21,779 bases of DNA from contig CAYLZE010000087.1 in the NCBI GenBank assembly GCA_964388035.1, positions 1-21,779 of the forward strand, written 5' to 3'. The notes beneath the pieces were generated by a model. It was given only the letters and a program-made list of their open reading frames with translations. It was not told the origin of the DNA and did not search any database. Both the position numbers and the translations under genes were made by a program. Source of the DNA: an uncultured archaeon (GTDB lineage: Archaea; Asgardarchaeota; Lokiarchaeia; Sigyniarchaeales; SOKP01). Shown piece by piece: positions 10,472-12,804 of this stretch (within the stretch, counting starts at the first letter, position 1; each line of letters begins with the position of its first letter).

Positions 10472-11506
10472 TCACATTTTAATTAGTTCATATTTATATT
10501 TTGTGGGATTCCCCTTAGTAATATACATTTCGAGGTTAACCAAATCCATAATTATTGAACAAACCGACCCACCCCGACCAAACCGTTCGTTTCGTCTGTA
10601 TTTACGGCAAATCGGATGCTCTTTATTGGATTTATCCAAAAGAATCGATTTCATATCATCAATTGATTGTAATTGAACACCTTTAGCTAAAGATTCTGCT
10701 CGTTCATAGCGAGCAAGAGTATTGTCCATGTCTGATCCAAGGACTCCTGTAGAAATAATGGATTTATCTTTAAGATAATGATTGGTATGAACAAAAATTT
10801 CCTCTTCTTGCGAATTTTCAATTAAAAAATACTTTTTCCCTGCAAATTCCACATCCATGAATCTTCCTTTTTTATCACCAATTAAAATATTGCTAGCTGT
10901 TCCATGCTCATGATTTTTCATTTTATCAACCGCTTCTTCCAAATTCGCAGAATCCAATACTGCTCGCAATAAAATATGAATAGGAACGCCATTTAACTCT
11001 CCATCGATTCCCAAAAAATTCAAACAAGCCCCCACACCATCATTATTAAATCCAATCTTACCGATTATTCCAGGTTCTGTCATTTGAAGGATTTCCTGTC
11101 CATTTTCTTTCTTTATTCGCATGATAACTGCTAATGATTCCAAAGCTTCCGCCCAATCCCAATTTTGTGCAAGAATGCTCGTTTTGCTAAAATAGAGGGC
11201 GGTACATTCTTTCTTAAGCAAAGAGGTCAGCTCAGTTCTTCCGTTTAACACATAAATCCATAAGGGGTTTGCTCCAGATCCCTCTGCAATAGCTTCTATT
11301 TCCTCGCAATAATCAGGATTGAAACCATTAATAACTTTTTTAAATGCTTCCCCCTTCTTTAAAATAACTTCTTCCTCTAATCCGGAAGCTATGTGATAAG
11401 CTGCAATAGTTTTATGAATCCTATCCTTTATAATTTTTCCGTGCTGCAATCCAATTTCACGAGGAGATCCTTTAAGTTGGATAATCGGAAATTTTTCGAC
11501 GGGCAT
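10472..11506 (-). CDS. C45 family Ntn-hydrolase
   Basis: GSPREIGLQHG, EEIEAIAEGSG, LNGRTE, KE|CTA, AQNWDW, GKIGFN, HTNH and ICR motifs. Confidence 0.9.
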   Translation of the reverse strand: MPVEKFPIIQLKGSPREIGLQHGKIIKDRIHKTIAAYHIASGLEEEVILKKGEAFKKVINGFNPDYCEEIEAIAEGSGANPLWIYVLNGRTELTSLLKKECTALYFSKTSILAQNWDWAEALESLAVIMRIKKENGQEILQMTEPGIIGKIGFNNDGVGACLNFLGIDGELNGVPIHILLRAVLDSANLEEAVDKMKNHEHGTASNILIGDKKGRFMDVEFAGKKYFLIENSQEEEIFVHTNHYLKDKSIISTGVLGSDMDNTLARYERAESLAKGVQLQSIDDMKSILLDKSNKEHPICRKYRRNERFGRGGSVCSIIMDLVNLEMYITKGNPTKYKYELIKM

Positions 11507-11672: not shown

Positions 11673-11695
11673 GGAGAAAAAGTTTATATTTATAA
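11673..11695 (+). promoter_or_regulatory. Candidate archaeal BRE + TATA box upstream of the structured element
   Basis: GGAGAAAAAG followed by TTTATATTTATA, ~25-30 nt before the start of the self-complementary region. No + strand ORF of size follows. Confidence 0.45.
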
Positions 11696-11710
11696 TCAGA
11701 TATATAAAGA

Positions 11711-11880
11711 TTGAAGGACGATACTAACAATCAAGATTTCCCCCATACAACCTGGATTTTTGTCTTTTGGTTGGTGTAAATTTTTACACCTTTATTTGCC
11801 TTTCTCCTTCTTTATTGTTAATTACCTTGTATTGAGGTAGTGTATGCGGGGAAATCGCCTTAACTAAATTTCATTACTTT
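11711..11880 (+). ncRNA. Candidate structured non-coding RNA of unknown family
   Basis: GATTTCCCCCATAC (11735-11748) pairs with GTATG(C)GGGGAAATC (11842-11856). Inner hairpins at 11773-11790 and 11823-11839. AAGG (11714-17) and CCTT (11858-61) form a closing stem. Confidence 0.5.
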
Positions 11881-12001: not shown

Positions 12002-12263
12002 TTAATAAAATAGGCAATATGGAAATTTTCTTTTATGATTTCCCTTATTTAATAAATTAGACATTCTTTCAACGATTTTATCAATTTCAGTTTTAAATTT
12101 CAAACGTTGATCAAAAAAAGTATTATTTACGAGGAGCAATTGCGTTATTAAAATTTCTGGAATTTATAGAAATTTCTTAGCAAATACGAGCATTTCCTGA
12201 AGGAATTGCCCAGTCTCCTTTTTTTTCTAAAATTATAAATTTAAAATTATTTGCGATCGTCAT
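12002..12263 (-). pseudogene. Possible internally deleted gene remnant (enoyl-CoA hydratase-like ends)
   Basis: MTIANNFKFIILEKKGDWAI... resembles a crotonase N-terminus. In a shifted frame, QEMLVFAKKFL*IPEIL...VNNTFFDQRLKFKTE resembles a C-terminal helix region and contains an in-frame stop. Confidence 0.3.
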
Positions 12264-12304
12264 CTATTTGCTCTAATTTTGAATCTTATTTAAAATCACG
12301 CTCT

Positions 12305-12339: not shown

Positions 12340-12804
12340 TTAATCTACATTAACTTCAATTCCACATTTATTACACCGTTTTGCTCCCCGAAATAAGCTA
12401 TTCCCACATTCAGGACAAATATATCTTTTCTCTTCCTCTTCTACCCATTTATTATCTCCCCACTCTTTTCTCTGGGGGATAGCTCTCAAGATCACCTTTT
12501 TCCCTACGGCAATAGGAAAGTTTTTGATATATTTGCAAGGAAAATCTTCGCATTGATGGCATCCTTCGATTCCTTTTGTTTCACAGCAGCTTTTAATCGC
12601 ACAAGCTCTGCATACGGGGAAAACAACTCTTGAAGATAAACATCCCGTGCATGATATTTCATCTACGCCTTTTACGAATGCTTTATAAATTGGAAATAAT
12701 TTTTCTTTAAACTTTTGATTATTATCTCTATGGGCAATATAGATCGAGCATACACCACAATATAAACCGCAAGGAGCTAAAAGATCCTTATTCACTTCAA
12801 CCAT
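12340..12804 (-). CDS. DUF3795 domain Cys-rich metal-binding protein with C-terminal zinc ribbon
   Basis: APCGLYCGVC, CTGC, C..CAIKSCC..KG..GCHQCEDFPC and CPECG...CNKCG motifs. Confidence 0.88.
   Translation of the reverse strand: MVEVNKDLLAPCGLYCGVCSIYIAHRDNNQKFKEKLFPIYKAFVKGVDEISCTGCLSSRVVFPVCRACAIKSCCETKGIEGCHQCEDFPCKYIKNFPIAVGKKVILRAIPQRKEWGDNKWVEEEEKRYICPECGNSLFRGAKRCNKCGIEVNVD

Follow-up and report, generated by a model that had tools for sequence, protein, structure and literature searches.

A multi-copy family of structured non-coding RNAs with a near-invariant U-rich loop in one family of Lokiarchaeia

Comparative sequence analysis identifies positions 11735-11861 (plus strand) of the window, the 21,779-nt stretch of DNA that we analyzed, as the gene of a folded non-coding RNA of about 127 nt that belongs to an uncatalogued multi-copy family. 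The preliminary description of this DNA had raised the possibility of an undescribed archaeal non-coding RNA family, and we arrive at the same view: the RNA is structured and conserved, occurs independently of any particular neighbor, and has no match in Rfam. How it works is less certain. With about even confidence, and judging from sequence features, we propose that it is an independently transcribed, trans-acting structured small RNA whose U-rich loop would dock a protein, plausibly an Sm-like ring, while a pyrimidine-rich linker and the 3' tail would pair with other sequences.

The RNA gene, its fold and its ends

The source genome comprises 5.47 Mb in 211 contigs, has a G+C content of 33% and is 96.7% complete; the window corresponds to its contig C87. 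The element lies in an 833-nt gap flanked by two genes on the minus strand. Features of the gap and its borders are as follows.

10472-11506, minus strand: gene of a C45/AAT-type acyltransferase, a neighbor of the element's gap
11673-11695, plus strand: BRE/TATA-like motif seen in the sequence, an alternative and less likely promoter
11700-11709, plus strand: TATA-like box ATATATAAAG, 26-35 nt before P1, the likelier promoter as judged from its spacing
11729-11734, plus strand: conserved proximal element AA-n-n-A-W, from base frequencies in 86 copies, with a probable start at or next to G11735
11735-11748 / 11842-11856, plus strand: closing stem P1, 14 bp with C11847 bulged, from the minimum-free-energy fold and covariation
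11735-11748, plus strand: 5' arm of P1, from the fold; double changes in 10/10 modelled P1 pairs, 91.6% of cells paired
11842-11856, plus strand: 3' arm of P1, with bulged C11847, from the fold
11749-11752 / 11769-11772 (11749-11772), plus strand: P2, a 4-bp stem closing a 16-nt U-rich loop, from the fold
11751-11770, plus strand: near-invariant 20-mer CCUGGAUUUUUGUCUUUUGG, which includes AUUUUUG at 11756-11762
11773-11779 / 11784-11790, plus strand: P3, a 7-bp hairpin with a 4-nt loop, from the fold; 6/6 modelled pairs covary, 97.9% of cells paired
11791-11820, plus strand: pyrimidine-rich, purine-poor single-stranded linker of 30 nt, unpaired probability about 0.9 in the window's copy
11821-11828 / 11834-11841, plus strand: P4, a hairpin with core ACCUU / AGGU, from the fold; 8 modelled pairs with double changes
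11857-11863, plus strand: unpaired 3' tail, with G-CC-UU at 11857-11861, and probable transcript end, from position frequencies in the family
12340-12804, minus strand: gene of a DUF3795 zinc-ribbon protein, a neighbor of the element's gap

The plus strand of segment 11705-11880 is predicted to fold with a free energy of -45.3 kcal/mol (z = -4.07), and none of 200 dinucleotide shuffles folded as well. The fold of the minus strand is weaker (z = -3.18), and the plus strand is also the one fitted by the G-U pairs, by motifs that are U-rich rather than A-rich, and by the T-run downstream. From inspection of the letters, the preliminary description had drawn a 14-bp stem with one bulged C joining the ends and enclosing two hairpins and pyrimidine-rich linkers. 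All of these parts appear in the minimum-free-energy fold, where 11791-11820 are unpaired, and compensatory changes preserve the helices across 84 relatives; the bulged C belongs to the fold of the window's copy but is not a feature of the family, as it is absent from every other copy. Two further pairings that had been suggested find no such backing. The upstream partner of an outer AAGG/CCTT closure is conserved in no other copy, only the 3' CCUU being kept, and a switch-like alternative pairing of 11714-11722 is without comparative support since its partner is likewise unconserved. Positions 11709-11732 form a small hairpin of their own (GAUUG / CAAUC), a similar one being found at the copy on contig C9 and nowhere else in the family.

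Covariation across the 84 model-aligned sequences provides the strongest argument for an RNA structure. In this alignment 87.2% of cells are paired, compared with 68.6% when partners are shuffled, and double-sided changes occur in 30 of the 32 pairs. The covariation score is 0.405 versus 0.144 for shuffled partners (0/500 shuffles reach 0.405) and falls to 0.04-0.07 once partners are displaced by 1-3 columns. Fitting the alignment to the model favors the structure, a bias that the displaced controls have in common with it. P1, P3 and P4 all covary strongly. Little or no variation is seen at the two inner C-G pairs of P2, which are therefore uninformative in this respect.

The beginning of the gene can be placed from the conservation profile. 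Among 86 copies, conservation sets in six bases before P1 with the pattern A-A-n-n-A-T (A at -6 in 87%, A at -5 in 80%, A at -2 in 94%, T at -1 in 73%), followed by G at +1. A pyrimidine-purine step such as T at -1 and G at +1 is typical of archaeal start sites. Because conservation begins 6 nt before the stem and shows this step, the transcription start is probably at or near 11735, and the TATA-like box ATATATAAAG at 11700-11709 is probably the promoter. In a paralog subfamily of genome G127, a conserved TATATAAT occupies a similar place, 29-36 nt before P1. The BRE/TATA-like motif at 11673-11695, which the preliminary description had taken as the promoter of a transcript starting near 11711-11713, is indeed present. 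Its use would imply a 24-nt leader, which forms a hairpin here, but no other copy conserves that leader, and this again places the start at or near 11735. A comparison with the promoters of tRNA genes was uninformative, as aragorn supplied only 7 tRNAs for it.

At the other end, the family consensus is GAGUC-W-CC-Y followed by two more U (tail W-CC-Y-UUU). As to the T-rich end noted earlier, 73 of 86 copies have a run of 3-5 T at the 3' end; the window's copy has TT only, so its terminator is weak and transcription here may end less sharply.

The preliminary description had supposed the RNA to be new, and a search of Rfam 15 with the whole window gave nothing at gathering score, with the element nothing at E up to 10, and with five canonical relatives nothing at E up to 5. 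A scan for tRNA and tmRNA found nothing. We found no account of the family in the literature searched, and one Asgard intron preprint consulted for it gave none either. On the minus strand, at 12180-12271 of the window, an end-paired element of about 90 nt lies just downstream of the DUF3795 gene; it gives a weak SNORD81-like (C/D box) match with E = 3.3, far under the gathering score, and has no clear D box by eye.

Copies, distribution and genomic neighborhoods

A search for further copies, which the preliminary description had suggested, was productive. BLAST, nhmmer and a covariance model agree exactly on five copies in the source genome, on contigs C87 (the window's), C9, C10, C75 and C208. 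They are 75-81% identical, and their similarity begins at P1 and ends at the tail. Their neighbors are unrelated: the acyltransferase and DUF3795 genes in the window, and elsewhere genes of a thiolase, a PAP2 phosphatase, a radical SAM enzyme and a methyltransferase.

In order to describe the distribution we refer to the GTDB family that holds the source genome (Lokiarchaeia, Promethearchaeota) as f1 and to its sister family as f2. A first covariance model (R1), built on the five copies of the source genome, matched 23 of 24 other f1 genomes, and a second (R2), built on 33 genomes, matched 119 of 126 f1 genomes with 1-18 copies per genome. A near-invariant 19-mer was found with at most one mismatch in 126/134 f1 genomes, in 1/14 f2 genomes and in 0/251 genomes from 31 families outside f1 and f2; the reversed pattern, used as a control, gave one match. 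An exact scan of the 19-mer through 185,579 species genomes returned almost only Promethearchaeota MAGs. A few of the matched MAGs with canonical copies are labelled Odin-, Thor-, Hermod- or Hodarchaeota (L040, L056, L063, L083, L091, L092); at least one coincides with an f1 genome in the GTDB-based set (L083 = G050:C82), and the public labels seem unreliable.

Unfiltered searches uncovered divergent relatives in one f2 genus, g20, which includes a closed 6.0-Mb genome (L254, L256 and L257, G274:C1; L255, G035:C84). These score 25-42 bits and keep the order of elements around a variant core, AUUUUGUC followed by five U and GG, and an additional hairpin pairs their C-run with a G-run. The same searches found no relatives in five other f2 genera, and covariance models did not find the family in a closed 4.4-Mb f2 genome. 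The family is thus essentially specific to f1, with divergent relatives in a single f2 genus.

Among viral contigs there were four exact 19-mer matches. Only one of them belongs to the family, as a weak member (44.5 bits), and the rest are non-members that resemble chance matches. The weak member (L162, IMGVR_UViG_3300029288_000001) lies near the end of a 225-kb contig filed as viral, which could be an Asgard virus or mobile element that carries the RNA, or a misfiled chromosomal fragment.

Copy number is highest in G127, where 18 copies fall into subfamilies (L204, L206, L208, L214, L216 and others) and include two tandem pairs of equal spacing as well as a 98% identical duplication of 1.7 kb. 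Duplicates of recent origin in this genome have about 100 nt of upstream sequence in common and their homology stops at the 3' end of the RNA, so they arose by DNA duplication of promoter and gene together. Size also varies within the family. Minimal variants of about 75 nt (L108, L118) have no parts other than a closing stem that covaries, the invariant U-loop and a pyrimidine tract. The C75 copy (L008:6545-6701, minus strand, which is G000:C75:10545-10701 in the source genome, G000) and the C208 copy are lengthened by an insertion of about 30 nt that separates P1 from the U-loop, the second insertion-bearing copy lying at L009:2568-2723 (plus strand). The insertion adjoins a partial duplicate of the motif's CUGGA start, and in the C75 copy the 19-mer is unbroken on its 3' side, with one mismatch. 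A strict scan of the C75/C208 insertion for a bulge-helix-bulge found no canonical motif that would restore the consensus.

One copy per genome is syntenic, with the same neighbors in 33-35 of about 110 loci across genera. At this home locus the RNA is preceded, at a distance of about 260 nt, by a divergent gene for a small membrane protein of 3-4 helices and followed, about 340 nt downstream, by a radical SAM/HMPTM-zinc-ribbon gene. In the source genome the home locus is that of the C75 copy, whose flanking genes are L008:4395-6116 (minus strand) and L008:6868-7254 (plus strand); the window's copy is therefore a dispersed paralog. In G001, a genome of the same genus, the genes that flank the window's copy are on different contigs, with no RNA adjoining them.

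Paired ends and dispersed copies, sometimes in tandem pairs and numbering 1-18 per genome, could also suggest a MITE-like or selfish DNA repeat, as the preliminary description had considered, in which a terminal inverted repeat only mimics an RNA stem. We regard this as very improbable. The reading fails because the terminal repeat covaries, with compensatory double substitutions that are also seen in the internal hairpins; because direct repeats of 4-9 bp flank 45/99 loci, where 44.5 are expected from re-paired flanks; and because no transposase is found near the five copies of the source genome or at the loci compared for synteny. The upstream region shared by recent paralogs, the end of their homology at the RNA 3' end, and the synteny of one copy across genera also count against it. 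No more credence can be given to a cis-acting leader or riboswitch, or to an end-paired type I toxin mRNA with a micro-peptide. The radical SAM gene does follow on the same strand in 33 loci, but only the syntenic copy precedes it, some 340 nt away and after the T-run that directly follows the fold, while dispersed copies, including that of the window, have downstream genes that are unrelated or on the opposite strand. The toxin reading had drawn on TTG micro-ORFs in the window's copy; both the micro-ORFs and the reading built on them fail because no reading frame is conserved, the best one being open in only 28/98 copies, with element lengths distributed over all residues modulo 3 (26/45/27 in 98 copies). 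Least probable of all is the reading of the element as a Y RNA-like molecule that partners a Ro60-type protein. Outwardly the window's copy does look like a Y RNA, having a bulged C in its closing stem, pyrimidines in the loop and oligo-U at the end, but the bulged C is missing from the other copies, and no TROVE-domain gene (PF05731) was found in the 96.7% complete source genome by a search that detected the control genomes.

The conserved loop, the pyrimidine linker and candidate partners

Conservation reaches 90% or more in a single stretch of the family, the U-rich loop sequence CCUGGAUUUUUGUCUUUUGG; the sequences of P1 and P3 change freely with pairing kept, and the loop stays constant across paralogs whose helices and linkers differ. 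Its predicted mean unpaired probability is only 0.58 because of invariant G-U pairs that lie beyond any test by covariation. In the 5.47 Mb of the source genome, the best non-self match to the loop's complement is 16/20 counting G-U pairs, which is at chance level. Since the loop is invariant across differing paralogs and has no complement above chance in that genome, it may be a docking site for a protein.

The most plausible partner would be an Sm-like (SmAP/Lsm) ring, because the AUUUUUG core adjoins a stem-loop and oligo-U closes the predicted transcript. A consensus Sm site reads PuAU4-6GPu and has stem-loops on its flanks (PMC3710371), and archaeal SmAP1/2 associate with U-rich RNA (PMC12817955). 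The sequence GAUUUUUGU at 11755-11763, invariant in most of the family, matches this consensus except for the last purine, where U follows the G. Stem-loops flank the Sm-like site, with P1/P2 on its 5' side and the P2 strand and P3 on its 3' side. The source genome has four LSM-domain genes. The third paralog, of 106 aa with an acidic tail (G000:C33:9137-9454, minus strand; locus L189:1411-1731), sits on its own long branch in the LSM protein tree and is found at 54-83% identity in 55/58 f1 genomes, while outside f1 the same query finds only matches of 32-45%; the fourth LSM-domain protein has 140 aa. The distribution of the third paralog appears to match that of the RNA, a single clade-level coincidence that we treat only as a lead. 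No protein gene travels with the RNA in the neighborhoods of dispersed and syntenic copies.

Beyond the loop, most copies continue after P3 with UGAUUU-CGCCC, a C-rich run of the CCUCC type and a U-rich stretch; in the window's copy and its four paralogs this linker is richer in U. Family-wide, the best 14-nt window of the linker contains 12.6 pyrimidines on average and has an unpaired probability of 0.83; the tail is predicted to be unpaired at 0.99, and CCUCC itself occurs in 59/99 copies. The paralog subfamilies of G127 have the same loop with three different linkers. The source genome shows an enrichment of GGAGGTGA-type motifs (GGAGG/GAGGT/GGTGA) at positions -14 to -6 relative to its start codons. 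The linker and tail resemble an anti-Shine-Dalgarno sequence and would be free to pair with purine-rich, Shine-Dalgarno-like sequences. The RNA as a whole may then combine a constant protein handle with a variable pairing module, as Hfq- and Lsm-dependent regulatory RNAs do. Complements of the C-rich linker, the G-rich product that it might template, gave isolated matches only. In the g20 relatives the C-rich part of the linker is folded into a hairpin of its own, and an anti-Shine-Dalgarno-like seed is therefore not universal.

For the function of the RNA, a protein-docked (Sm-like), trans-acting molecule with a pyrimidine pairing module seems to us about evenly poised between right and wrong, and two other readings have to be weighed against it. 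The loop of a stable RNA might be read by a partner other than an Sm ring, either a lineage-specific RNA-binding protein or conserved rRNA or pre-rRNA, and the RNA would then serve RNA processing as a scaffold, chaperone or guide instead of being an Lsm-dependent regulator. This is possible, if clearly the less probable reading. Twenty consecutive, nearly fixed bases far exceed the U-tract required by an Sm ring and point to a different partner or a further one, and an rRNA partner could have been missed in that SSU and LSU rRNA genes were not found in the G000, G104 or G024 assemblies. The lack of any above-chance complementary site in the source genome speaks against an RNA partner of this kind, as does the A-rich reverse complement of the loop, since conserved rRNA cores are not A-rich in this manner; for a protein other than Sm, one may object that no gene travels with the RNA. 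We are more doubtful still about a seed-type antisense regulator whose C/U-rich linker and CCUU tail block Shine-Dalgarno sites or mimic the anti-Shine-Dalgarno, with the U-loop serving for stability only. Linker and tail are indeed unpaired, almost free of purines and CCUCC-like, the source genome uses Shine-Dalgarno motifs, and the linker differs among paralog subfamilies, all of which would suit a seed. But the linker is the least conserved single-stranded part and the loop the most conserved, the version in the window's copy is weak and U-rich, the g20 relatives hide the C-run inside a hairpin, and composition alone predicts that a pyrimidine tract will match purine-rich ribosome-binding sites.

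A more specific form of the Sm-like proposal would have the RNA and an Sm-like ring, maybe of the third LSM paralog, make up an archaeal Sm-class RNP of their own, in which the handle is constant and the pyrimidine guide varies and which acts on purine-rich sites in translation start or RNA processing; such a particle would be a prokaryotic analogue of snRNPs that arose inside Asgard. We offer this as a speculation and consider it rather unlikely.

Comparison with known small RNAs and implications

Asgard archaea are the closest known relatives of eukaryotes, and to our knowledge their non-coding RNAs are almost unexplored. Sm proteins build the snRNPs of eukaryotes as well as the Hfq-sRNA complexes of bacteria. 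The family described here is abundant in copies, strongly constrained and absent from the databases and literature searched, and its sole fixed element resembles an Sm-protein binding site. Binding of an Sm-like ring by the RNA, if real, would offer a tractable archaeal model for the working and evolution of Sm-RNA particles with a constant handle and variable pairing; direct inference on the origin of eukaryotes is limited, since a single lineage of Lokiarchaeia holds the family. Even with its function left aside, the covariance model improves the annotation of hundreds of Asgard genomes.

As stand-alone structured RNA genes of unknown function that form islands of higher G+C (37-50% versus 33% for the genome) in AT-rich intergenic DNA, members of the family recall the HgcC/E/F/G class, from which they are distinct in fold, motifs and lineage, and no Rfam match links them. 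Y RNAs, too, have ends that pair into a closing stem, an interior rich in pyrimidines and a U-tail, but the source genome has no Ro60/TROVE gene and the element's bulged C is unconserved. Sibling small RNAs of the RsaE/RoxS and CcsR types also present unpaired C/U-rich motifs fit for GGAGG-type sites and occur as several paralogs per genome. They are bacterial and not homologous to our element, and they form a row of hairpins with C-rich loops, whereas the element is a closed multi-helix junction whose C-rich tract is less conserved than its U-loop.

The closest likeness is to Sm-class snRNAs (U1, U2, U4, U5, U7) and to small RNAs bound by Lsm or Hfq. Common to these and the element are a U-rich site with an AUUUUUG core beside stem-loops, and a small, stable-looking RNA with paired ends and an oligo-U 3' end, encoded by multi-copy genes with their own promoters, as predicted for the element; the GUC that follows the element's core recalls the Sm site of U7 type. 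The element differs from Sm-class snRNAs in showing no homology to them by sequence or model (no Rfam match at E up to 10), in lacking the purine after the G, in holding the site within a loop closed by a 4-bp stem, and in being limited to one family of Lokiarchaeia and one sister genus rather than found Asgard-wide. The likeness is one of sequence features and need not extend to Sm binding or to a role in splicing. Among known systems, the element would appear to work most like the small RNAs bound by Sm, Lsm or Hfq proteins, though it is at most a candidate member of the Sm class.
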